Origin: a virus
Taxonomy: Duplodnaviria > Heunggongvirae > Uroviricota > Caudoviricetes
Direction: 5' to 3' (one strand)
IMG/VR virus record: IMGVR_UViG_2711768048_000001
Length of the DNA: 24,179 nucleotides
In this document: in pieces, positions 15,012 to 24,179 of the stretch
Layout: every line of letters starts with the position of its first letter
Numbering within the stretch: position 1 is the first letter of the stretch
Notes under the pieces: generated by a model
The model's input: the letters and a program-made list of their open reading frames with translations, nothing else
The model's database searches: none
Told to the model about the DNA's origin: nothing
Made by a program: the position numbers and the translations under genes

Positions 15012-15659
15012 TTAGAAGTTCAGATTTTTCAGTGCATTCAGTGCAGAGCCCACATCCTCAGCGTCGCGCAGGGACAGTGCGCCATAGCCCCCGGCCATGA
15101 ATGCTTTGGCCTGGGTACGGGAGAGTCCGACATCACGCAGGACTCTTTCGATTTTTTTCTGTTCGGGGATTTCCCCGCGGGCCAGTGCGTTCTTGACGTC
15201 GCTGATCCGCGCCTCGTCGTTAGACGGGAACGTCACCAGGCTGACTTCCCAGAGGTCGATTTCTTTCAGCAGAAAGGCTTCTTTGCTCCGGTCGTATTCC
15301 CAGTCTTTCAGGACGTACCCAATAGAAAGGCCGGTTAACGAACCGGCCTTCATGTGTGCATGTGCGCGTTTTGCCAGGGGATCATCATCAATAAGCAACC
15401 GTCCCCTGACGTAAAGCCCGACATCGTCTTCCTTCATTTCGGTGTAAACACCGATGGGTTCATCCATGCGGTGCTGCCAGAGCAGTGCAGGTAACGCTTT
15501 TCGGTCACTCCACGCCCGCAGGGAAGCAGCAAATGCCCCGGACATCACCACATCATCGTGGCTGTCCTTTACACCAAAGACGGAGCCATACCCTTCAAAC
15601 TCACCGGAGTCACTGACAGATTTCAGACTCAGCGGTACATCAAGACGTTGTTTCGTCTG
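15012..15659 (-). CDS. Prohead maturation protease (HK97 gp4 family)
   Basis: The track ORF runs 15012..15698, but the ATG at 15659 (MQTKQRL…) has an AAGGA ribosome-binding site and the ATG at 15698 has none. Sits between portal and capsid genes. Confidence 0.7.
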   Translation of the reverse strand, partial: QTKQRLDVPLSLKSVSDSGEFEGYGSVFGVKDSHDDVVMSGAFAASLRAWSDRKALPALLWQHRMDEPIGVYTEMKEDDVGLYVRGRLLIDDDPLAKRAHAHMKAGSLTGLSIGYVLKDWEYDRSKEAFLLKEIDLWEVSLVTFPSNDEARISDVKNALARGEIPEQKKIERVLRDVGLSRTQAKAFMAGGYGALSLRDAEDVGSALNALKNLNF

Positions 15660-16881
15660 CATTGGCGTTATCCTTCTGCTTACCGGCCTTACTGCCATCG
15701 GAGGGTTTCGTGGTCATGTTCATCGGTGTGAGATAGACATCACCACCGGGACGCGGATTCATATCTTCCAGGTCGCGGCAGTCATTGGGAGAGTAAATTC
15801 CCCAGTTGATCCCGGTGGCGTAGGCTTCAAAACGGGACTTCATATCCCCGCGCAGTAACGCCCCGGCGTTAAATTTGGCGTAATAAACGCCCTGCTTACT
15901 TTTTCGTACCAGTCCGGTGTTGATCCGCTGTTCGATGCGGGTCAGATACGGCACCAGTGAATAGTTGATAAATCCCAGCCCCAGCTCTTCGATATTGTTG
16001 AAGGTGGCGCGATCGGTGTTCTGCACCATGTGCAACGGCACCCGGAACAGACGACAGATTTCTTCAAGCTGAAACTTGCGGGTTTCCAGGAACTGGCTGT
16101 CCTCGGCGTTCAGCGCCATCGACTTCCAGTCCAGCCCCATCTCAAGGATCATCGGGCGGTGAGCATTGCCAAGCCCGGTGTGACGCTCCTCAAAATCTTT
16201 CTTCAGGCGCTCATAAGCCTGATCTGACAGCGTCTGCTCTGTACGCAACACACCCGACGTCACCGCGCCATTGCTGAACAGTCTGGCCCCGTGCTCTTCG
16301 GTCGCTGCCGCCAGCGATATTGCCTCGCGGGCATAGGCGATGGGATTCAGCCCCACCAGTCCGTCCAGCGTCAGCGTGCGCACATGCCAGATATCCTCCT
16401 GGCTCAGTACATCCGTGGAGCCATCCGGGAATGTGACCTGATAGATCGGCTCCCAGCTACTGTTAAGCTTCGGTACCACACAGCCGGGATCGACGGGCAG
16501 CAGTTCAGCCACTTCGCCAAATGCTTTCACTTTGTAGGCGTAAAAGTTTCCCCGCAGGCACAGACAGGTGACCACCAGCTCCCAGAACTCCTGCGGCGTC
16601 ATATAGCCATTGGGATGCGTGGAGATCAGCTTATGCAGACGTTCGCCAGTGGCTCTCTGCTTCAGGCTGCCGTTCAGGTGATACAGGTTGCAGGGCAACA
16701 TCCCGACCGACTCCGCCAGCACCCTGACACAGGAAAAAACCGCCGTCAGTCGCATGGCCCGCTGGCTGCTGATCTGTTTTCCGGTATAGGTGTCGTAGGA
16801 CAACCCGATAGCATCCGCCAGCTCTGCTGGCGTGGTCACCGGTGCGTCACTTTTTCGTTGAAATAATCCCGAAAAGAACAC
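15640..16881 (-). CDS. Portal protein (HK97 family)
   Basis: 413 aa downstream of the large terminase; GTG start preceded by GGAGGT. Confidence 0.8.
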   Translation of the reverse strand: MFFSGLFQRKSDAPVTTPAELADAIGLSYDTYTGKQISSQRAMRLTAVFSCVRVLAESVGMLPCNLYHLNGSLKQRATGERLHKLISTHPNGYMTPQEFWELVVTCLCLRGNFYAYKVKAFGEVAELLPVDPGCVVPKLNSSWEPIYQVTFPDGSTDVLSQEDIWHVRTLTLDGLVGLNPIAYAREAISLAAATEEHGARLFSNGAVTSGVLRTEQTLSDQAYERLKKDFEERHTGLGNAHRPMILEMGLDWKSMALNAEDSQFLETRKFQLEEICRLFRVPLHMVQNTDRATFNNIEELGLGFINYSLVPYLTRIEQRINTGLVRKSKQGVYYAKFNAGALLRGDMKSRFEAYATGINWGIYSPNDCRDLEDMNPRPGGDVYLTPMNMTTKPSDGSKAGKQKDNANADETTS

Positions 16882-17063
16882 TATTTACCTCCGCCGACAG
16901 ACGACTGTGTACGGTCGAGATATCGCGCCACCAGCCACGACCAGAACAGACACAACGCCCCGACAACAACAAACCCCGCCGGGGGATAAATCAGCCAGGC
17001 ACCATACGCCAGCAAAAGCGCCCCCAGCACGCCCACCAGAGGCGCGAGAATCAGCATGATCAT
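16881..17063 (-). CDS. Small hydrophobic protein (60 aa, two predicted transmembrane helices) between terminase and portal
   Basis: [49 protein letters not shown]…; ATG with GAGGT upstream; its stop overlaps the portal start codon by 1 nt. Confidence 0.45.
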
Positions 17064-17074
17064 AATTACCTCAG

Positions 17075-18808
17075 TTAAAGCGAGCGGATCCCATAGGACT
17101 CAATGTGGTCAGACAGCGTGTCTTCTTTCTCGTACAGCATGGCTCTGCCAACCGCCATAATCAGCGCAACTGCACCATCGATTTTGTTTTCCGCCTGCTC
17201 TTTGACGGGCTTCACCACATCATCGTTACCTGGCATGTTTTTGCCGACCACATTGCCGATACACCAGGTCATGATGGGATTGCCGTCATGATGAAAGCGT
17301 CCCGATTCAATCGCTGCCTCCAGCTCTTTCATCGGGTCGGACATATTGGCGAAGTTCTGGACGATAGTAACGGGATTCAGGTCTTCATCAGCAAGGTCAT
17401 GTGACAGCCCGGTCGCTCCGAAAGGGTCGATGGGTGACTCACTGACCGGGCTGATTTTGTTCGCCGCTTTGGCCTCTTCGAGGATGTAGCGATAATCCAC
17501 CTCTGCACCATCGGTAACGGTCAGAACGCCCATTTCCACCCATTTCTGAAAGCGTTCGGCTGTCCGTCGATCTTCATTTTTCTCGACGCTGTACACCGTG
17601 TCATACGGTACCCAGAAACGCGGGGCCACACTGTAGTAATGCGTTTTACCGTCAATCTCGCGGGTATAAAGTCGCGCCATGCTGTTCATATCCAGCTTAC
17701 GCGCCAGGTCAAAGGCCAGAATGCACGGCTGCCCCTCGAACTGCTCAAGGGTCAGTGATTTATCCTCGCAGCTCTGCCAGCTCACCAGGTTGAAATACGC
17801 CGAACGTGCCGACACCCAGATATTGAGGTGTTTTGTTTTAAAGACGTTTGCCAGACGGGCGTTATTTTTCGCACGCTGCTGCTGACTTAACAAAAATTCG
17901 CGATAAACCGACACGCCAATATTTGGATTGGCTTTTTCCAGCACCTGCGGGTCGGTCCAGTCGTCACCTTCATCAACGGTATAGATGATCCCGAACAGTT
18001 CATCGTTGGGCACCGAGCCGTTGAGCATCTCGATGACTTCCCGCCGCTTGTCGTAGCACGGCCCCTCAATGTTGTACCCGGCGGTAGTGATAGCCCACAT
18101 CAGTGGCTGACGTCGCGCCCCCATCCCGGTAAGCATCGTGGTGTAAAGCGCATCTGTGGCGTGCTCGTGATATTCATCCACCACCGCACAGTGGGGTGAT
18201 GAACCATCACCGGGGTTACCGATCAGCGGTTCAAAACGCGCACCATCCTCCGGACGGTTCATGTTTGAGGCGTTAACCTCAATCCCGAACGCTTCCGTCA
18301 GCATGGGTGTGCGTTTACACATCAGTCTTGCCGGACGAAAGACTTCCCATGCCTGTTTCTCCGTCGTGGCACCGGAATACACTTCCGCGCCGAACTCGTT
18401 ATCACAGGCAAAACAATACAGGGCGACACCGGCAGAGATTGCCGATTTGCCGTTCTTACGGGGGATTTCGGTATACACCTCACGGAAGCGGCGCAGCCGG
18501 GAGCCTTTATTGACCCAGCCAAACGCGCAGCAGATCACAAAGAGCTGCCACGGCTCCAGCGTGATGGGCATCCTCTTAAATGCCCACTCACCCTTGGTGT
18601 GCGGCAACAGCTGAATAAATTTGGCGGCCCGTTCAGCCAGGTCCTTGTCGAAGCGGTAACGAAACGACTTACTTTTTTCCGCCATCAGGTCATCAAGATG
18701 GCGCTGGCAGGCCTGAATCACAAACTGGCAGGCCACAATCTTTCCGCGCACGACATCCCGGGCATACTGATTGGCAGCATTTACGTTGGGGTAAGATTTC
18801 CGGCTCAT
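17075..18808 (-). CDS. Terminase large subunit
   Basis: 577 aa directly after the small terminase, with ATPase and nuclease domain organisation typical of TerL. Confidence 0.85.
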
Positions 18809-18821
18809 GATTCGATGATTT

Positions 18822-19316
18822 TCAGATTGTCAGAAACGGGTTAGTGGCTTTCTTCTTCCCCGCCAGGCCAATCAGACGCTGGCGGCTGCTGGGGTCGAGT
18901 CCGAGCATTGCCCCCGTGCTGCTCATCTCGGACTCCTGTTCTTTTTTGGCGGTCAGCTCCGGATTTTTGACCATGCCACCCATTGCACCGGTGATGGTGT
19001 TACCCTGTCTGGCAATATTTTTCACGGCACGTCGCCAGAACTCATAGGCCACACACCACCGCTCAAGTACCGCCAGGTCAGTCACGCACAGCAGGCCCTG
19101 ACCGCAGAGTTCTTTGGTTGTCAGTTGCCACATGATCGTGGCGAGAGGGAGATCTTCTTCAGCGAACCACTCCGGTGGCTCAACACCTTTGATGGGCGTA
19201 AAAACAGGTTCATCTTTATTCAGGGCTCGCTTGCCGGGGTTTCCGGCCAGCGCCTTGCGCGCCGTTGGCTTGGGGCGACGCCCGGAACGCCCCGCCGTTC
19301 CAGCCATATGCGGCAC
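18822..19316 (-). CDS. Terminase small subunit (P27 family)
   Basis: Start is probably the ATG at 19307 ([14 protein letters not shown]…); the track ORF begins at a GTG at 19316. Basic N-terminus, immediately upstream of TerL. Confidence 0.75.
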
Positions 19317-19432: not shown

Positions 19433-19783
19433 TCACTTCAACCGTTCACGGGCCGTCTTCGCCTTATGACACGGCCAGCACAGACTCTGCAGATTACAGT
19501 CGGCATCAGTGCCGCCATGCGCTTTAGGGATGATGTGGTCAACGGTTTTCGCCTCACGTACCACACCACCACGCAGACATAACTGACACAGGCCTTTGTC
19601 ACGCTTCAGTACACGTTCACGGATAGCATCCCATTTCGAACCGTAGCCGCGCTGATGACGGGACTGGCCTGGCTTGTATTGCCTCCAGCCTTCGCTTTTG
19701 TGGCTTTCGCAGTAGCCTGACGGGTCTGTGGTGGTATGGCGGCAGCCACGAACACGGCAGGCTTTTGGGATTCGTGATGGCAT
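19433..19783 (-). CDS. HNH endonuclease (packaging-associated)
   Basis: C-terminal HNH motif (…TVDHIIPKAHGGTDADCNLQSLCWPCHKAK…) plus an upstream Cys/His cluster. Likely start is the ATG at 19783 with a GGAG ribosome-binding site; the track ORF extends to 19882. Confidence 0.8.
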   Translation of the reverse strand: MPSRIPKACRVRGCRHTTTDPSGYCESHKSEGWRQYKPGQSRHQRGYGSKWDAIRERVLKRDKGLCQLCLRGGVVREAKTVDHIIPKAHGGTDADCNLQSLCWPCHKAKTARERLK

Positions 19784-19870
19784 ATGTACTCCAATGAAGA
19801 AGCCACCGACATAGCCTCCTCCATTCATCGTGAAACTATTTTCATCTACCCAGTAATGAATTCTTTGTAG

Positions 19871-19925
19871 AGTTGTGATCAATACAACTCACTAATGGAG
19901 AGGCTTGTCCAACACGTTGGACAAG
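19871..19925. repeat. Two adjacent perfect inverted repeats (gagttgt-N7-acaactc and cttgtccaac-ac-gttggacaag)
   Basis: Read directly at 19871..19891 and 19904..19925; no convincing U-tract on either strand. Confidence 0.6.
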
Positions 19926-20005
19926 TTTCCTGTTTGATTTACTGGACACTATAGAAGGACAGAATGCCTTCATCACTCGAATAACATCAATTAAGGAGGT
20001 TCAAC

Positions 20006-20128
20006 ATGTTTCATTCCACAAATCATCAGGCTGTAATTATGGCTGCATCAGCTTGTGCCACAGACCTTTTCCGCTTCACTTTGAGCCTGATTCATTTCTA
20101 CCTGACCGGCTCGCCTCTATCTTTTTAA
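20006..20128 (+). CDS. Small hydrophobic ORF (40 aa) with a consensus Shine-Dalgarno sequence, unknown function
   Basis: AAGGAGG at 19993..19999, 6-nt spacer, ATG at 20006. Translation MFHSTNHQAVIMAASACATDLFRFTLSLIHFYLTGSPLSF. Same strand as bor and upstream of it. Confidence 0.4.
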   Translation: MFHSTNHQAVIMAASACATDLFRFTLSLIHFYLTGSPLSF

Positions 20129-20308
20129 TCCCCGCTTTATCCAAATTGCATTGCCAGAATGCCGACAACAGACTGACATTCAAATCCTGACTACCTCCAA
20201 TAGTCTGACCGTACACCTATATAGTTTTAATTTTCATCAATCCATTTAACTATCGTTTAATTGTTGTCACATAGGATTCTGCCGTTTTTAACAATGCAGG
20301 ATAATAAG

Positions 20309-20602
20309 ATGAAAAAAATGTTGTTTTCTGCCGCTCTGGCAATGCTTATTACAGGATGTGCTCAACAGACGTTTACTGTTGGAAACAAACCGACAGCAGT
20401 AACACCAAAGGAAACCATCACCCATCATTTCTTCGTTTCGGGAATTGGACAGGAGAAAACTGTTGATGCAGCCAAAATTTGTGGCGGCGCAGAAAATGTG
20501 GTTAAAACAGAAACCCAGCAAACATTCGTAAATGGATTGCTCGGTTTTATTACTTTAGGCATTTATACTCCGCTGGAAGCGCGGGTGTATTGCTCACAAT
20601 AA
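20309..20602 (+). CDS. bor: Bor lipoprotein (lambda Bor / Iss family, serum-resistance moron)
   Basis: 97 aa MKKMLFSAALAMLITGCAQQTFTV… with lipobox LITGC; close to lambda Bor as I remember it; convergent with Rz, as in lambda. Confidence 0.9.
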   Translation: MKKMLFSAALAMLITGCAQQTFTVGNKPTAVTPKETITHHFFVSGIGQEKTVDAAKICGGAENVVKTETQQTFVNGLLGFITLGIYTPLEARVYCSQ

Positions 20603-20613
20603 TTGCATGAGTT

Positions 20614-20631
20614 GCCCATCGATATGGGCAG
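20614..20631. terminator. Hairpin between the convergent bor and Rz genes (possible bidirectional terminator)
   Basis: tgcccat-cgat-atgggca; overlaps the last Rz codons; no strong U-tract. Confidence 0.25.
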
Positions 20632-20633
20632 CG

Positions 20634-21095
20634 CTATCTGCACTGCTCATTAATATACTTCTGGGTTCCTTCCAGTTGTTTTTGCATAGTGATCAGCCTC
20701 TCTCTGAGGGTGAAATAATCCCGTTCAGCGGTGTCTGCCAGTCGGGGGGAGGCTGCATTATCCACGCCGGAGGCGGTGGTGGCTTCACGCACTGACTGAC
20801 AGACTGCTTTGATGTGCAACCGACGACGACCAGCGGCAACATCATCACGCAGAGCATCATTTTCAGCTTTCGCATCAGCTAACTCCTTCGTGTATTTTGC
20901 ATCGAGCGCAGCAACATCACGCTGACGCATCTGCATGTCAGTAATTGTCGAGTTCGCCAGCTTCAGTTCTCTGGCATTTTTGTCGCGCTGGGCTTTGTAG
21001 GTAATGGCGTTATCGCGGTAATGATTAACAGCCCATGACAAGCAAACGATGATGCAGATAACCAGAGCGGAAATAATCGCGGTTACTCTGCTCAT
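20634..21095 (-). CDS. Rz: Rz i-spanin
   Basis: 153 aa, essentially the lambda Rz sequence ([48 protein letters not shown]…). Confidence 0.9.
20693..20875 (-). CDS. Rz1: Rz1 o-spanin lipoprotein, embedded in the +1 frame of Rz
   Basis: 60 aa [47 protein letters not shown]… with a lipobox and proline-rich region, as in lambda Rz1. Confidence 0.85.
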
Positions 21096-21568
21096 ACCTC
21101 AATCTCTCTGACCGTTCCGCCTGCTTCTTTGAATTTTGCAATCAGGCTGTCAGCCTTATGCTCGAACTGACCATAACCAGCGCCCGGCAGTGAAGCCCAG
21201 ATATTGCTGCAACGGTCAATTGCCTGACGAATATCACCGCGATCAATCATCGGTAAAGCGCCACGCTCTTTAATCTGCTGCAATGCCACAGCGTCTTGGC
21301 TTTTCGGAGAGAAGTCTTTCAGGCCAAGCTGCTTACGATAGGAATCCCACCAACGGGAAAGAAGCTGGTAGCGCCCGGCTGCTGTTGATTTGAGTTTTGG
21401 GTTTAGCGTGACAAGTTTGCGAGGGTGATCGGAGTAATCAGTAAATAGCTCTCCGCCTACAATGACGTCATAACCATGATTTCTGGTTTTCTGCCGTCCG
21501 TTATCCGTTCCTTCTGACCATGCCACCATATCGAGGAAAGCCTTACGCTGAGGATTAAGATTTTGCAT
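21092..21568 (-). CDS. R: Endolysin R (lambda-type lytic transglycosylase)
   Basis: 158 aa; …[64 protein letters not shown]… matches lambda R except for the first ~7 residues. Confidence 0.9.
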
Positions 21569-21872
21569 TTTTCACCCCTGTCAGTCGTTCCCAGAAGTAC
21601 GTCAGTGCAACCGAACCCATCGCACCACTAATCCCCGCTGTCGCGAGAATCATGTAAATACTGAATCCACTTTCGATGCTGATCAGGCCACCAATAACAC
21701 CGGTGAATCCTGATACCACTATCTGAGCCAGAGCATTTATCCAACTCCACGTTGCTTTACTCTGCTTCACATCTATCAGGTAGCGGACCAGACCGCCCCA
21801 ACCTGCGATGATCAGCAAAACGAGCCAGAACGCTCCGGCAAGGCTCTCTTTTTCGTGCATATGAATAGCCAA
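21555..21872 (-). CDS. Holin (not the lambda S sequence; 2-3 predicted transmembrane segments)
   Basis: Sits at the holin position immediately upstream of and overlapping R; hydrophobic segments with a charged C-terminus. The track start is TTG at 21872; an in-frame ATG at 21860 (MHEKESL…) is an alternative. Confidence 0.6.
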   Translation of the reverse strand: MAIHMHEKESLAGAFWLVLLIIAGWGGLVRYLIDVKQSKATWSWINALAQIVVSGFTGVIGGLISIESGFSIYMILATAGISGAMGSVALTYFWERLTGVKNAKS

Positions 21873-21974
21873 TATTTCGCCGCCGACAAAAGGCCGGGAC
21901 GTTAAATGTCAGAAATCAGGCTCACGGGGTAATTTAACGACAAAGCACGGAGTTGATGCTCCCCGCAAGCCTGG

Positions 21975-22000
21975 AATAAAAAAGCCAGCATGTAGCTGGC
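21975..22000 (-). terminator. Rho-independent terminator, candidate tR' (end of a 6S-like short late transcript)
   Basis: Minus strand GCCAGC-tacat-GCTGGC followed by TTTTTTATT, about 140 nt downstream of the candidate pR'. Confidence 0.5.
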
Positions 22001-22122
22001 AACAGAGGGTTAAGCAATATCAACTCAACAGCTGAAGACACCCTGTCTGGGGTAGGTTGGAAGGCTACTCACCGTCCAGAAACAGAAAAGCCCAAAGTTT
22101 TAAACCTCGGGCTTGAATTTGG

Positions 22123-22151
22123 ATTACTGCCAGTGCGTACAACATTGGCAA
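22123..22151 (-). promoter_or_regulatory. Candidate late promoter pR' (-35 TTGCCA, 17 bp, -10 AGTAAT) with adjacent qut-region hairpin
   Basis: Minus strand TTGCCA (plus 22146..22151), 17-bp spacer, AGTAAT (plus 22123..22128), about 30 bp downstream of the Q-like stop; a hairpin follows at about 22089..22113. Confidence 0.35.
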
Positions 22152-22181
22152 AATATCAGATTTACACGAAATATATGCTTT

Positions 22182-22871
22182 TTAATCCAGTTTTGCAATA
22201 CTTTGCTGTGAAAATGTCGTCTTTTGTTTTGAACGTGTTTTCGTTAAAAGCAATAAAGCTTGGCTATCAAGCTGTAGAAAAATGTGCTTCATTGCAACCC
22301 AGCGTTCAGTAAATGTCTCAGACCAGTTTTTTGATGTCACTCCCACCAGTGATGCCAGCTCCTGGTATTCATAGGTCTTACGCCCTGCCAGCTCGTTCTT
22401 CACATCCTGTGCCGCCAGCCAGATCAACTTCTTCAAACGTTCCAGTGTCTTACCTGCAATTTTTCTGGTACCCAACAGAGTCTTAAACTCGCTCCATGCC
22501 CACTGCGTTATGGCAACCTGATGCTCCCAGCGAACACTTTCGCTGTAACTCCACAGCAACCACGCTTTCTGATGTTCATCAAGAGACAGAACCGCGCGGC
22601 GCCATGAAGAGGTTGAGAACTCAACCTGGCTGACCAGTGCAATGGATGAACCTTTTGCGTACGACTGCTTACCGGAAATCGGCGGATTATCCAGCGTAAT
22701 CATCCTGCCAGTTACCTCATCCAGAATGCGCGGCTTCTTTCGTTTGTATGTACCAGTATCAAATTGAGCATGCTCCAGCCAGGCTTCAAGCTGGCCTTTC
22801 GTTACTCCGCTCAAATCAGCGGTAGCCACCATGAGTTGCTCGCGAACATACTGTAAATATTGGATATTCAT
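22182..22871 (-). CDS. Putative late-gene antiterminator Q (non-lambda type; assigned by synteny)
   Basis: 229 aa in the slot between ylcG/rusA and the lysis cassette. It contains no cysteine, so it cannot be a lambda-Q-type zinc-finger protein. Confidence 0.45.
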   Translation of the reverse strand: MNIQYLQYVREQLMVATADLSGVTKGQLEAWLEHAQFDTGTYKRKKPRILDEVTGRMITLDNPPISGKQSYAKGSSIALVSQVEFSTSSWRRAVLSLDEHQKAWLLWSYSESVRWEHQVAITQWAWSEFKTLLGTRKIAGKTLERLKKLIWLAAQDVKNELAGRKTYEYQELASLVGVTSKNWSETFTERWVAMKHIFLQLDSQALLLLTKTRSKQKTTFSQQSIAKLD

Positions 22872-23008
22872 GCGGCAGCTCCTTTCAGTGTTTTGGCGTA
22901 ATTCTTCAGTATTCGGTAATCGGTCAAAACAGAACCGGGAAAACGATATAAGCGCAGGCGCACCCAGCGGCGGCGAAGACGTTCTGCCATATAAGACTCA
23001 AACATCAT
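22868..23008 (-). CDS. ylcG: YlcG-like small protein (46 aa)
   Basis: Not in the track. ATG overlaps the rusA stop; its stop overlaps the Q ATG. Translation [46 protein letters not shown]. Same position as DLP12 ylcG. Confidence 0.6.
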
Positions 23009-23367
23009 TCATCTCCCAGTTCGGTGATGGTCAGCTCCAGCTTCCCACCTTTGGTAACGGGCATCTTCACAACGCGATAATCAACGACCTGAGCATCATC
23101 CAACCAGAAACCTGCTTTGGTGAGTGCGTCAAAAGCGGCCTTTTGTAGATTATCCAGGTCACGGCGACGGCGATCCGGCATGTGACACTCAATGCGGATT
23201 TTCACTGGCATAGCCAGGCCGATATCCAGCATTGCGTTTTTAATGATTTGAGCGACGTTATCGCGGTATGCCTGCCCCTCTGCGCTGACGTGCGTGCGCC
23301 CGCGATTATGGCGGTAATAGCGATTATTGCTCGGAGGCCAGGGTAATGTGATGCTGTAGGTATTCAC
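23005..23367 (-). CDS. rusA: Holliday junction resolvase RusA
   Basis: 120 aa [39 protein letters not shown]…, near-identical to my recollection of E. coli DLP12 RusA. Confidence 0.9.
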
Positions 23368-23654
23368 GCCTTAATAACCCCCTCTTTCAGCCAGATAACC
23401 TGTGTTCTCGCCATACCTTCCAGCGCGCATTCTTTTGCATATGCAGCATCGACAAAATGTGTGCGGCGGTCGATTTCGTCGTGGCAGGCAGAACATGCAA
23501 TGGTGGCAATCAGGTCTGGCGGTTTCGTACCGGTGCCGCACAATCCAGTCAGCCGGATATGTGCCAGTACAGACGTTTCAGGGTTGCCATTACATACGCC
23601 AGGGATTCTTACCTGGCATTCCCGACCACGCGCTGCTTTTCTCAAATCAGCCAT
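23364..23654 (-). CDS. ybcO: YbcO-like protein (DUF1364; Cys-rich putative nuclease)
   Basis: Start taken at the ATG at 23654 ([14 protein letters not shown]…) with AAGGAGG upstream, giving 96 aa; the track ORF extends further. Sits immediately upstream of rusA, as in DLP12. Confidence 0.7.
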
Positions 23655-23817
23655 GACTCCTCCTTGCTGCCAGTCGCAACCATTTTTTATCAACCAGGCT
23701 GGCGGTATATCCGAGCAGTGTTGGTATTTCGGAAGGCTTCAGCTCCGGTTTACGCTTACGACGATTTGGTACTCTGTAGATGTGTCCGTTCATGACACGA
23801 ATAAGCGGTGTAGCCAT
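23647..23817 (-). CDS. ninE: NinE-like protein (56 aa)
   Basis: Not in the track. Translation [56 protein letters not shown]; its start overlaps the upstream gene's stop and its stop overlaps the ybcO ATG. Confidence 0.6.
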   Translation of the reverse strand: MATPLIRVMNGHIYRVPNRRKRKPELKPSEIPTLLGYTASLVDKKWLRLAARRSHG

Positions 23818-24179
23818 TACGCCTCCTGTTTGTCGCGGAGCTGCTGGAACTCGCTGCTCTGCGGAATAGTCAGGTGGCAGCCAATATTCATCGCCCAGGC
23901 TTCAACCTTACACAGGAAGACATACATCTCTCCGGTATCAAGATCGGAGGTATGGCGTAACGACTGGATAGTGGTGATATCACCGGTTACGACATCAACC
24001 AGGTCTTTGGTTTCATAACCGAGATATGTGTGTTTGAGAGCATCTTTTACCCAAGCTGGAGTGGCGAACGTTTTACCCCTGCTGATGAGGTATTCACTGA
24101 TTTCGCTGTACCACATGTGGCTGAGTGCATTCTGGGAAAGACTGCGTTTCTCACGCCACGGTTTAAGCACCATGCGAAA
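23817..24179 (-). CDS. NinB/YbcN-family protein (N-terminus probably beyond the window edge)
   Basis: …KRSLSQNALSHMWYSEISEYL… resembles the RSLDQNRKLW motif region of lambda NinB; the frame stays open to the window end. Confidence 0.55.
   Translation of the reverse strand, partial: FRMVLKPWREKRSLSQNALSHMWYSEISEYLISRGKTFATPAWVKDALKHTYLGYETKDLVDVVTGDITTIQSLRHTSDLDTGEMYVFLCKVEAWAMNIGCHLTIPQSSEFQQLRDKQEA

Follow-up and report, generated by a model that had tools for sequence, protein, structure and literature searches.

Why would a phage keep a gene for a 6-kDa membrane hairpin between its terminase and portal genes: because the hairpin takes part in portal or prohead assembly, or because a late membrane effector has been frozen there by translational coupling? 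The question is raised by a small ORF in the window, a 24,179-nt stretch of a Caudoviricetes genome (IMG/VR record IMGVR_UViG_2711768048_000001). A sequence-only reading had described this ORF as a translationally coupled gene for a two-helix membrane protein and had suggested an exclusion or anti-defence role. We compared the locus with related phages and prophages, and describe below the gene, its family and its protein before weighing what it might do.

The small ORF is real at exactly the coordinates of the sequence-only reading and lies on the minus strand (ATG at 17063-17061, 60 codons, TAG at 16883-16881; Table 1). The expression signals named in that reading were also borne out by the sequence. 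The terL TAA ends at 17075, leaving an 11-nt spacer that puts the ATG 12 nt past the last stop base; the ORF has its own ribosome-binding site, GAGG at 17072-17069; and its stop overlaps the portal start by one shared base, as expected for translational coupling. The spacer, ctgaggtaatt, is identical across all SfII-like and phiP27 loci, and GGAGG, GGGGG or GGAGA is present at the portal Shine-Dalgarno site in all lineages. Because the portal Shine-Dalgarno sequence is encoded in the last codons of the small gene, the C-terminal GG[EKD] of the protein is conserved; together with the stop/start overlap, this arrangement would leave ribosomes that finish YmfR placed for the portal start. Upstream on the same strand, the late operon runs from a Q-like antiterminator through a holin-endolysin-spanin (Rz) cassette and an HNH gene to terS-terL, with the lysis genes (holin of phrog_785, endolysin and Rz) at 20634..21872, ~3.5 kb upstream of the small ORF. 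No promoter-like site was found within 500 nt upstream of the small gene on the minus strand, and the scan for a terminator after it found none. Its GC3 is 0.689 against 0.688 for the portal, and its GC content is 0.605 compared with the 0.621 expected from the codon usage of its neighbors.

Table 1. Features of the terL-portal junction and of the small gene (positions in the window).
Feature	Position	Strand	Basis
ymfR-like gene, 60 aa, two-helix inner-membrane protein (predicted N-in/C-in)	16881..17063	minus	ORF list and sequence, homology
TerL gene, usual but exchangeable upstream neighbor	17075..18808	minus	Pfam TerL_ATPase and TerL_nuclease
Small-gene Shine-Dalgarno GAGG, 5 nt before ATG, within the post-terL spacer	17069..17072	minus	read from sequence
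Terminator-like hairpin, 12 pairs (5 G-U), then UUUUGCUGG, within codons 7-16	17018..17045	minus	scan; SfII annotation
TM1, first hydrophobic helix, codons 2-24, conserved G11, G14, G21	16992..17060	minus	hydropathy, AlphaFold2, invariant columns
YPPAG turn, codons 26-30, most conserved part of the family, predicted periplasm-facing	16974..16988	minus	alignment
TM2, second hydrophobic helix, codons 30-47, ends in conserved A-R	16923..16976	minus	hydropathy, AlphaFold2, alignments
Portal Shine-Dalgarno GGAGG inside last codons of small gene (G-G-G-K), 6 nt before GTG	16888..16892	minus	sequence
TAGTG: small-gene TAG and portal GTG (16881-16879) share one base; translational coupling	16879..16883	minus	sequence
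Portal gene, HK97 type, constant downstream partner	15640..16881	minus	PF04860, Pfam E 6e-108

The small-ORF frame is the only one of the six that is open in all 10 diverged lineages examined, and the length of the protein is held at 58-64 aa down to 47% identity. The dN/dS of the gene is ~0.2-0.35 where dS is ~1 (~0.08 for the portal), which places it under purifying selection and makes it more than a chance ORF. The sequence-only reading had proposed following the frame through relatives; it is conserved in relatives ranging over Escherichia, Serratia, Azospirillum and many metagenomic phages, and with the signs of selection this makes the ORF a genuine gene that is very probably expressed. 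The terminator-like hairpin within its codons is labeled as a putative rho-independent terminator in the SfII record. This hairpin is broken in phiP27 and absent from other lineages; being lineage-specific, it was rejected as a conserved intrinsic terminator and is probably incidental. The late operon in which it sits lies downstream of the Q-like antiterminator.

The gene is ymfR of the SfII/e14-type myovirus prophages, and was already named and annotated. RefSeq uses this name in 1372 of 5426 complete E. coli genomes, including the K-12 prophage e14, and the records of SfII (SfII_03), phiP27 (L37) and ST64B (Sb3) carry the label "putative integral membrane protein". Most of the 166 homologues are exactly 60 aa long, with many 60-aa E. 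coli proteins at 90-98% identity. In the PHROG search, residues 1-55 matched phrog_502 "membrane protein" at E 1.5e-27, and only membrane or unknown families were matched; PHROGs assigns the family to the category "moron, auxiliary metabolic gene and host takeover". Pfam (E <= 0.1), NCBIfam and PADLOC scans of the small protein gave nothing usable, the distant members are likewise without a Pfam family, and the searchable literature holds gene lists and annotations with no functional study of YmfR or its family. A "holin" lead in Neisseria came to nothing, as the gene is unrelated and sits at another place in its prophage. E. coli K-12 YmfR (b1150, e14) is the same gene: the nucleotide identity to the K-12 locus is 97.8%, and the 60 codons, the 11-nt post-terL spacer and the 1-nt portal overlap are all the same, whereas the flanking terL and portal genes are truncated remnants in e14 and intact here. 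An SOS-inducing drug raised e14 ymfR mRNA (tabulated value 4.52) along with the mRNA of the other e14 genes (PMC10012262). Many family copies in bacterial genomes are frameshifted, and thus show no sign of domestication.

The comparison also exposed annotation gaps and errors for the small gene across phage records. The gene is missing from the SfV and Klebsiella phage 48ST307 records, and in others it is mislabeled "head-tail joining protein W" or "portal protein". Lambda gpW, a soluble head-completion protein, is encoded between terminase gene A and portal gene B and has a similar length, and some of the automatic W labels follow from this resemblance in position and length; they are positional errors. 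A gpW-type identity was rejected, as the protein has no Pfam match at E <= 0.1, a GRAVY of 1.26 and matches to membrane or unknown PHROGs only.

The constant partner of the small gene is the portal gene rather than terL. The downstream ORF is a PF04860 portal in 64 of 66 diverse IMG/VR loci; upstream in the same loci, TerL accounts for 39 of 41 long ORFs, and only those 39 loci have TerL directly upstream. The stop of the small gene overlaps the portal start in 59 of 67 distinct family members from IMG/VR loci, by 1 nt (TGATG/TAATG/TAGTG) in 51 and by 4 nt (ATGA/GTGA/TTGA) in 8. Where the junction holds extra genes, these precede the small ORF; none separates it from the portal gene. Across loci retaining the small gene and the portal, terL identity ranges from 36% to 99%. 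In the Serratia loci, terL is 36% and the portal 73% identical and the small gene is present; in SfV, terL is 98.6% and the portal 27.6% identical and a close homologue is absent. As judged from these comparisons, the small gene stays with the portal through terL swaps. The portal N-terminal "GLF" was considered as a signature of the partnership and discarded as uninformative, since portals that lack the small gene have it as well.

By sequence comparison, the gene belongs to a large phage and prophage family with a shared core motif, which is new here. The family comprises 371 clusters at 50% identity, nearly all of 45-90 aa, and its distant branch alone comprises at least 1267 clusters at 90% identity; gp30 of Azospirillum phage Cd lies in the same HNH-terS-terL-X-portal module. 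In a small and non-random sample of annotated phages searched by tblastn (15 lineages), a two-TM ORF of 53-68 aa occupied the terL-portal junction in 8 of 12 proteobacterial lineages, counting SfV and Azospirillum Cd. The sequence-only reading took membrane proteins to be rare in packaging modules, a premise that is wrong for this clade. No such gene was found in HK97, Caulobacter phage Kronos, a Pseudomonas phage or three Gram-positive phages with related portals; hence the gene is not required for HK97-type portal function in general. Within the sampled lineages, the family has so far been seen only in phages of diderm hosts. Remote homologues are the SfV-type proteins (53 aa, phrog_7105), left unannotated in the SfV record and called hypothetical in that of Edwardsiella phage EPP-1; hhalign relates them to the family with a probability of 96% (E 4.5e-9), and they match phrog_502 at E 5.7e-6. 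They share the position, the two-TM hairpin and a 3' end that overlaps the portal start and carries the portal Shine-Dalgarno sequence, and their start overlaps the terL stop (ATGA); they differ in being shorter, in pairing with another portal lineage (27.6% identity) and in having the turn LQFGxxPAL instead of LIYPPAGF. Present in one of every four complete E. coli genomes, and represented by hundreds of clusters in Alpha- and Gammaproteobacterial phages, the ymfR-like gene is among the most widespread uncharacterized phage genes locked to a core structural gene.

The protein is, as the sequence-only reading had it, a two-helix membrane protein by hydropathy and by the AlphaFold2 hairpin. The Kyte-Doolittle maxima in 19-residue windows are 2.67 (residues 1-19) and 1.93 (residues 28-46), the AlphaFold2 model has helices at 2-25 and 27-57 (mean pLDDT 72), and the only charged residues are R47, D50, R51 and K60. 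From the positive-inside rule, we infer that both termini face the cytoplasm (N-in/C-in) and that few residues protrude from the cytoplasmic membrane on either face. W23, Y26, P27 and G30 around the turn are invariant in the alignment, the same motif is found in distant representatives, and a 12-letter core motif that includes the turn spans the family. The Gly-rich helices and the occasional tandem duplications suggest an oligomer. No significant PDB relative was found by sequence with both family profiles or by Foldseek with the AlphaFold2 model; the best Foldseek match, which was non-significant, is a type III secretion export-gate hairpin, and a two-helix hairpin is too simple for informative fold matching.

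What such a protein might do next to the portal can be approached from the linkage. Our tentative preference is for a late-expressed membrane factor tied to portal or prohead assembly, that is, a fixed accessory of the head module comparable in function to T4 gp40. YmfR would be made late and in amounts tied to the portal, and would act in the inner membrane when and where the portal is made, tethering or chaperoning portal-initiated prohead assembly or packaging from within the membrane; the factor would be dispensable in some lineages, such as HK97. The pattern of conservation argues against an assembly role: it falls on residues within the membrane and in the turn predicted to face the periplasm, and the cytoplasmic tails, to which a soluble portal would have to bind, are short and show little of it. 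The portal linkage could also be mere entrenchment, because the small ORF incorporates the ribosome-binding site and the start codon of the portal gene.

This last point is the core of the first alternative, a membrane-active accessory unrelated to the portal and held beside it only by the embedded portal ribosome-binding site and start codon, which we regard as possible but somewhat doubtful. The candidates would be superinfection exclusion at DNA entry (as for HK97 gp15, P22 SieA and T4 Imm), an anti-defence factor, a modulator of lysis timing or membrane potential with class II holin/pinholin architecture, or a modulator of a host membrane protein. The location of the most conserved residues in the bilayer and in a periplasm-facing turn would fit a host membrane partner or an oligomer or pore; the Gly-rich helices, the tandem duplications and the PHROGs category point the same way, HK97 and other phages with related portals do without the gene, so that it is dispensable for assembly as such, and the K-12 e14 gene is intact between truncated terL and portal genes. 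HK97 gp15 is also a precedent for a small inner-membrane exclusion protein encoded in a structural operon (PMC3594210). However, with neither promoter nor terminator of its own, the gene is unlikely to be expressed in the prophage state, and in e14 its mRNA increases only when that of the whole prophage does (PMC10012262). Its base composition is normal, PADLOC gave no match, the frameshifted bacterial copies give no sign of domestication, and a dedicated holin-endolysin-spanin cassette is already there; moreover, the gene has been inherited vertically and over great depth with a single structural gene in phages of Alpha- and Gammaproteobacteria, which is unlike the patchy occurrence of morons. 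The exclusion or anti-defence role proposed in the sequence-only reading thus found no positive support, and YmfR may still serve in exclusion or in another membrane-active accessory function.

We consider it improbable that the hairpin is a virion component, sitting at the portal vertex or in the head and inserting into the recipient inner membrane for DNA passage after ejection. A stoichiometric coupling to the portal and the restriction of the family so far to phages of diderm hosts would suit such a protein, and some predicted-TM hairpins end in supramembrane assemblies; the best, non-significant fold match is the export-gate hairpin. However, there is no relative in solved phage structures, and a hydrophobic 6-kDa protein (GRAVY 1.26) would need a chaperoning site in the particle; we know of no such site in a phage particle. 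Myoviruses and siphoviruses are thought to cross the membrane by means of tape-measure or tail proteins. The chance is slimmer still that the gene is a leader cistron acting in cis, whose translation would set the portal level or a membrane-proximal site of portal synthesis by termination-reinitiation with a largely incidental peptide. The prevalent stop/start overlap and the portal Shine-Dalgarno sequence within the ORF in all lineages, which explains the C-terminal GG[EKD], would be expected of such a leader, but a specific amino-acid motif (invariant G, W, Y and P) is kept despite saturated synonymous sites, dN/dS is well below 1, and HK97 couples terL to its portal gene without any leader. 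Finally, the reading that the junction holds no gene on the minus strand, but a terL-portal spacer with a terminator or attenuator (the hairpin annotated in SfII) or a real plus-strand ORF (a 78-aa frame is open there), is already refuted by the comparative data, as the hairpin is lineage-specific, all the other lineages have 2-4 stops in the plus-strand frames (ORFs at 16842..17078 and 16907..17059), the minus-strand frame stays open throughout and evolves under purifying selection, and the Rfam scan found no family at threshold and only a spurious sub-threshold miRNA match.

Returning to the assembly-linked membrane factor, its broadest form would make YmfR-like hairpins an unrecognized and widespread head-morphogenesis component of proteobacterial HK97-type phages, membrane partners made in a fixed ratio with the portal that would tie assembly or packaging to the membrane. 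We regard this extension as unlikely; if it held, membrane-nucleated assembly, so far a peculiarity of T4, would be common, and a named y-gene of E. coli K-12 would gain a function.

Comparison with known systems bears on these readings as follows. First, the ymfR-like gene is not a moron, and its wide occurrence with a near-constant overlap with the portal is hard to square with the database label. A moron is an independent, horizontally spread transcription unit (PMC3594210); the ymfR-like gene lacks a promoter and a terminator for itself and matches its neighbors in base composition, and instead of occurring sporadically among variable neighbors it precedes the portal in 64 of 66 loci and is co-inherited with the portal lineage. 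Such vertical inheritance over very long distances is the opposite of moron behavior (PMC3594210). HK97 gp15, the archetypal moron for superinfection exclusion, resembles YmfR in its small size, its inner-membrane location and a gene that stands amid the late structural genes, but has its own promoter and terminator, mostly non-phage homologues (YebO) and expression from the prophage (PMC3594210). The ymfR-like gene is unlike it in promoter, terminator and homologues by our comparison, and its expression from the repressed prophage is unlikely. No defence or exclusion family of PADLOC-DB was matched at E <= 1. Second, class II holins and pinholins (S21) share with YmfR a length of ~60-70 aa, two TM segments in N-in/C-in orientation, Gly-rich helices, a basic C-terminus and late expression, and the protein shows the general holin traits of at least one TM segment, small size and a charged C-terminus, which are not specific to holins. 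The ymfR gene, in contrast, lies outside the lysis cassette, which is separate, and always next to the portal, and the protein matches no holin PHROG or Pfam family. Third, T4 gene 40 is not known to be adjacent to gene 20, no homology of gp40 to YmfR was detected in the Pfam, PHROG and PDB searches, and the YmfR family is almost without a cytoplasmic domain; the analogy with gp40 would be functional only. In T4, the membrane-bound portal initiator gp20 needs the viral chaperone gp40 for its assembly, with YidC also involved (PMC9958956). The likeness that we propose is that YmfR, as gp40, would be a phage-encoded factor at the inner-membrane step where the portal starts prohead assembly.

The window is 97-99% identical to the Shigella phages SfII, SfI and SfIV and to related E. 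coli myovirus prophages, and its architecture is a lambdoid late-control region fused to a Mu-like/SfII-like myovirus structural module. The small ORF between the large terminase (terL) and portal genes belongs to a late operon under Q-type antitermination (see table). Its geometry, on inspection of the sequence, is as the sequence-only reading had described it in terL spacing, ribosome-binding site and portal overlap: an 11-nt spacer separates the terL TAA, whose last base is 17075, from the small-ORF ATG at 17063, and a GAGG 5 nt 5' of the ATG serves as its own ribosome-binding site. The TAG (16883-16881) has its G in common with the portal GTG, and the portal GGAGG (16892-16888) is embedded in the final codons of the small ORF. 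The upstream late region (19433..24173, minus strand) encodes NinB, a second HNH-like ORF, RusA, the Q-like antiterminator, holin, endolysin, Rz and the packaging-associated HNH, and a 60-aa ORF inside Rz (20693..20875) is probably Rz1.

Gene order around the small ORF in the window
Feature	Position	Strand	Basis
Q-like antiterminator	22182..22871	minus	Pfam/PHROG matches
Holin, endolysin, Rz spanin	20634..21872	minus	Pfam/PHROG matches
HNH endonuclease	19433..19882	minus	Pfam/PHROG matches
Small terminase, P27 family	18822..19316	minus	Pfam/PHROG matches
Large terminase (terL)	17075..18808	minus	Pfam/PHROG matches
60-codon small ORF	16881..17063	minus	
HK97-type portal	15640..16881	minus	Pfam/PHROG matches
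Prohead protease, then major capsid protein	3' of portal	minus	Pfam/PHROG matches

By sequence comparison, the small ORF is a genuine gene on four grounds, and the reading that it is not a gene is effectively excluded. First, a search of 5.8 billion proteins returned 166 relatives, mostly exactly 60 aa long and with identity as low as 58%, from hosts that include Escherichia, Shigella, Salmonella, Citrobacter, Hafnia, Yersinia, Klebsiella, Enterobacter and Buttiauxella. Second, genome loci widen this range to Mangrovibacter, Scandinavium and Serratia (47-69% identity). Third, the frame is the sole one of six that is open throughout ten diverged lineages. Fourth, dN/dS is ~0.2-0.35 where dS is ~1 (Nei-Gojobori), which is clearly purifying, with less constraint than on the portal (~0.08) or terL (~0.05). 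The plus-strand ORFs at 16842..17078 (78 aa) and 16907..17059 (50 aa) are spurious, because the antisense frame, free of stops in the window and phiP27, contains 2-4 stops in all other lineages compared. Bacterial genomes commonly carry frameshifted or truncated copies of the small ORF, in keeping with prophage decay (e.g. Shigella flexneri CP182557.1, locus L013, 5001-5179; proteins P0012, P0024, P0026 and P0086-P0099), and these copies show no sign of preservation by the host.

The gene is not new and already has a name (YmfR, phrog_502). It matches the phrog_502 'membrane protein' family (E 1.5e-27), is entered in SfII as SfII_03, 'putative integral membrane protein', and in identical wording in phiP27 as L37, is called sb3 in ST64B, and is present in 1372 of 5426 complete E. 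coli genomes by megablast, where RefSeq labels it 'ymfR: protein YmfR'. In the K-12 cryptic prophage e14, ymfR lies intact and with identical spacing between remnants of terL and the portal gene, in the order oweE-aaaE-ymfR-beeE (PMC11541549); in one e14 copy (L195, NZ_CP178206.1, 4880-6617) terL is without its N-terminal part and the portal without its C-terminal part, and ymfR is whole. With an SOS-inducing drug, the ymfR transcript (tabulated value 4.52) rises together with those of the other e14 genes (PMC10012262), and a screen of uncharacterised membrane proteins picked up ymfR in its first round and lost it in later ones. We found no functional study of YmfR in the searchable literature, in which the other mentions are gene lists. 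It is an ordinary annotated gene, yet it lends itself well to a simple experiment on a phage gene that is widespread and has no assigned function.

Across genomes, the small ORF travels with the portal rather than the terminase. Serratia prophages carry the gene with a portal 73% identical to that of the window and a terL just 36% identical, whereas SfV, whose terL is 98.6% identical but whose portal is only 27.6% identical, has no close homologue; in phi467 and 606R7, similarity to the window is confined to the stretch from ~17093 downward. A ~420-nt island (16716..17135), which reaches from the final 60 nt of terL across the small ORF to ~165 nt into the portal gene, is 90-100% identical to phiP27, with flanks only 65-80% identical; its junction behaves as a module-exchange point, since the SfV (~17156) and phi467 (~17093) breakpoints fall there. 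A contig attributed to the alphaproteobacterium Martelella alba (L014) carries an enterobacterial-like module with a 78% identical portal. Sequences 93-99% identical to this enterobacterial prophage are filed under Gram-positives ('Bacillota bacterium' MAG JAEWTL010000102.1, L005; 'Enterococcus phage Efm 3-10' OR844959.1, H18), a placement that points to contamination or misassignment.

The family extends far beyond its enterobacterial branch. Searched against 1.84 billion cluster representatives, a profile matched 371 at E <= 1e-3, nearly all 45-90 aa, with the common core [SA]YGAWL[IV]YPPAG[FY]IVGG. A profile of distant members reached at least 1267 clusters (90% identity), every one 'hypothetical' and covered by no Pfam family; named sources are few, namely Azospirillum, Reyranellaceae and uncultured phages. 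Among 80 loci retrieved from IMG/VR with the distant alignment, the PF04860 portal accounts for 64 of 66 distinct downstream ORFs, although these portals are mutually only ~25-35% identical, and TerL for 39 of 41 long upstream ORFs. Inserted extra genes, where present, lie 5' of the small ORF, and the overlap of its stop with the start of the portal gene is 1 nt long in 51 of 67 distinct members and 4 nt in 8. The module of Azospirillum phage Cd, HNH-terS(P27)-terL-gp30-portal-protease-capsid, is ordered as in the window.

An equivalent gene accompanies other portal lineages as well. In SfV, a 53-aa two-TM ORF (U82619.2, 2289-2450), left unannotated, lies between terL and portal and overlaps the terL stop (ATGA) and also the likely true portal start. 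The annotated portal GTG (2392) probably lies too far 5'; the GTG at 2440, with GGGGGA before it, agrees with the N-termini of related portals. This ORF is phrog_7105, matches phrog_502 (E 5.7e-6), and by profile alignment is a remote YmfR-family homologue (hhalign probability 96%, E 4.5e-9). In annotated phages with portals 25-39% identical to that of the window, Klebsiella phage 48ST307 has a clear unannotated 59-aa member (KY271402.1, L183, 2244-2423; hmmsearch E 6e-17) in its 172-nt terL-portal 'gap', Ralstonia YO075_1 and Edwardsiella EPP-1 have SfV-like proteins, and Vibrio K334, Vibrio Va_178/90_p41 and Pseudomonas D14C have analogous two-TM ORFs of 54-68 aa. No such ORF was found at the junctions examined in HK97, Caulobacter Kronos, Klebsiella Kp4866-6 and one Pseudomonas phage, or in three Gram-positive phages (Acutalibacteraceae, Streptococcus, Bacillus). 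Small and non-random as it is, this sample shows that proteobacterial HK97-type phages commonly, though not universally, carry a tiny membrane hairpin at this junction. Relative to the searched literature, the very large portal-locked family with its remote branch in SfV-type phages is new. In D14C (L188, 2227-2391) the 54-aa ORF is labelled 'Phage portal protein' and the true portal 'preconnector protease C', both positional mislabels.

The protein is strongly hydrophobic (GRAVY 1.26), with two hydrophobic segments (residues ~1-24 and ~29-47) and all charged residues C-terminal (R47, D50, R51, K60). AlphaFold2 with the family alignment predicted helices at 2-25 and 27-57 with moderate confidence (pLDDT 72). 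The protein would insert into the inner membrane, and the positive-inside rule suggests an N-in/C-in topology with the IYPPAG turn periplasmic. It probably oligomerises, given the conserved G11, G14, G21, G30 and G35 and the existence of tandem-duplicated four-helix versions. Such duplicated hairpins, 102-122 aa long, occur among distant members (P0152, P0162, P0175, P0228) and hint at a dimer or larger assembly as the working unit. The observation made in the sequence-only reading is confirmed and its interpretation holds in part: this is a real, portal-coupled membrane protein that is very probably expressed. The premise that membrane proteins are rare in packaging modules does not hold for this clade.

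Several identities were rejected. A moron is an independent transcription unit that spreads horizontally (PMC3594210); the small ORF has no room for a promoter, none is predicted nearby and no terminator lies 3' of it, its GC3 equals that of the portal, and its distribution is vertical with the portal. It is not the phage's holin, as a complete lysis cassette is present upstream, nor lambda gpW, a label that is positional in some records; ON470603, ON470584 and PQ793804 carry the automatic mislabel 'head-tail joining protein W'. Nor is it a conserved terminator: the terminator-like hairpin annotated in SfII (17018..17045, minus strand; codons 7-16) is confined to the SfII lineage, with a broken version in phiP27 and none in the other lineages, and the operon is moreover under Q-type antitermination. 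A shorter hairpin ([A/G]CNCC, 7 nt, GGN'GTG; codons 6-13) occurs in three other enterobacterial lineages (L009, L012, L020) with covarying third-codon positions (ACG/GGC, ACT/GGA, ACC/GGG), too few sequences for a conserved-RNA call.

With its own ribosome-binding site, late-operon position, stop/start overlap with the portal Shine-Dalgarno inside the ORF, and conserved hairpin sequence, YmfR would be made late and in proportion to the portal, and might act in portal or prohead assembly at the membrane. We favor this role, tentatively, because the gene has been inherited with the portal gene over very long distances and is coupled to it, which is the strongest fact. Two findings speak against it and keep our confidence low: the conserved residues lie in the bilayer and periplasmic turn, not on the cytoplasmic face, and HK97 and others do without the gene. 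The main rival, only slightly less likely, would be a late effector in the membrane (acting in exclusion, on membrane-potential or lysis timing, or by modulating a host protein), frozen beside the portal because the portal translation signals are embedded in it; the exclusion or anti-defence role proposed from the sequence is unsupported but conceivable, and PADLOC defence models did not match the small ORF. Less probable than these two readings are a virion or ejection component and, by a small further margin, a purely cis-acting leader, with which the amino-acid conservation conflicts. For a role in portal or prohead assembly, T4 offers a precedent for membrane portal initiation: its portal initiator gp20 is membrane-bound and gp40-dependent, with YidC implicated (PMC9958956).
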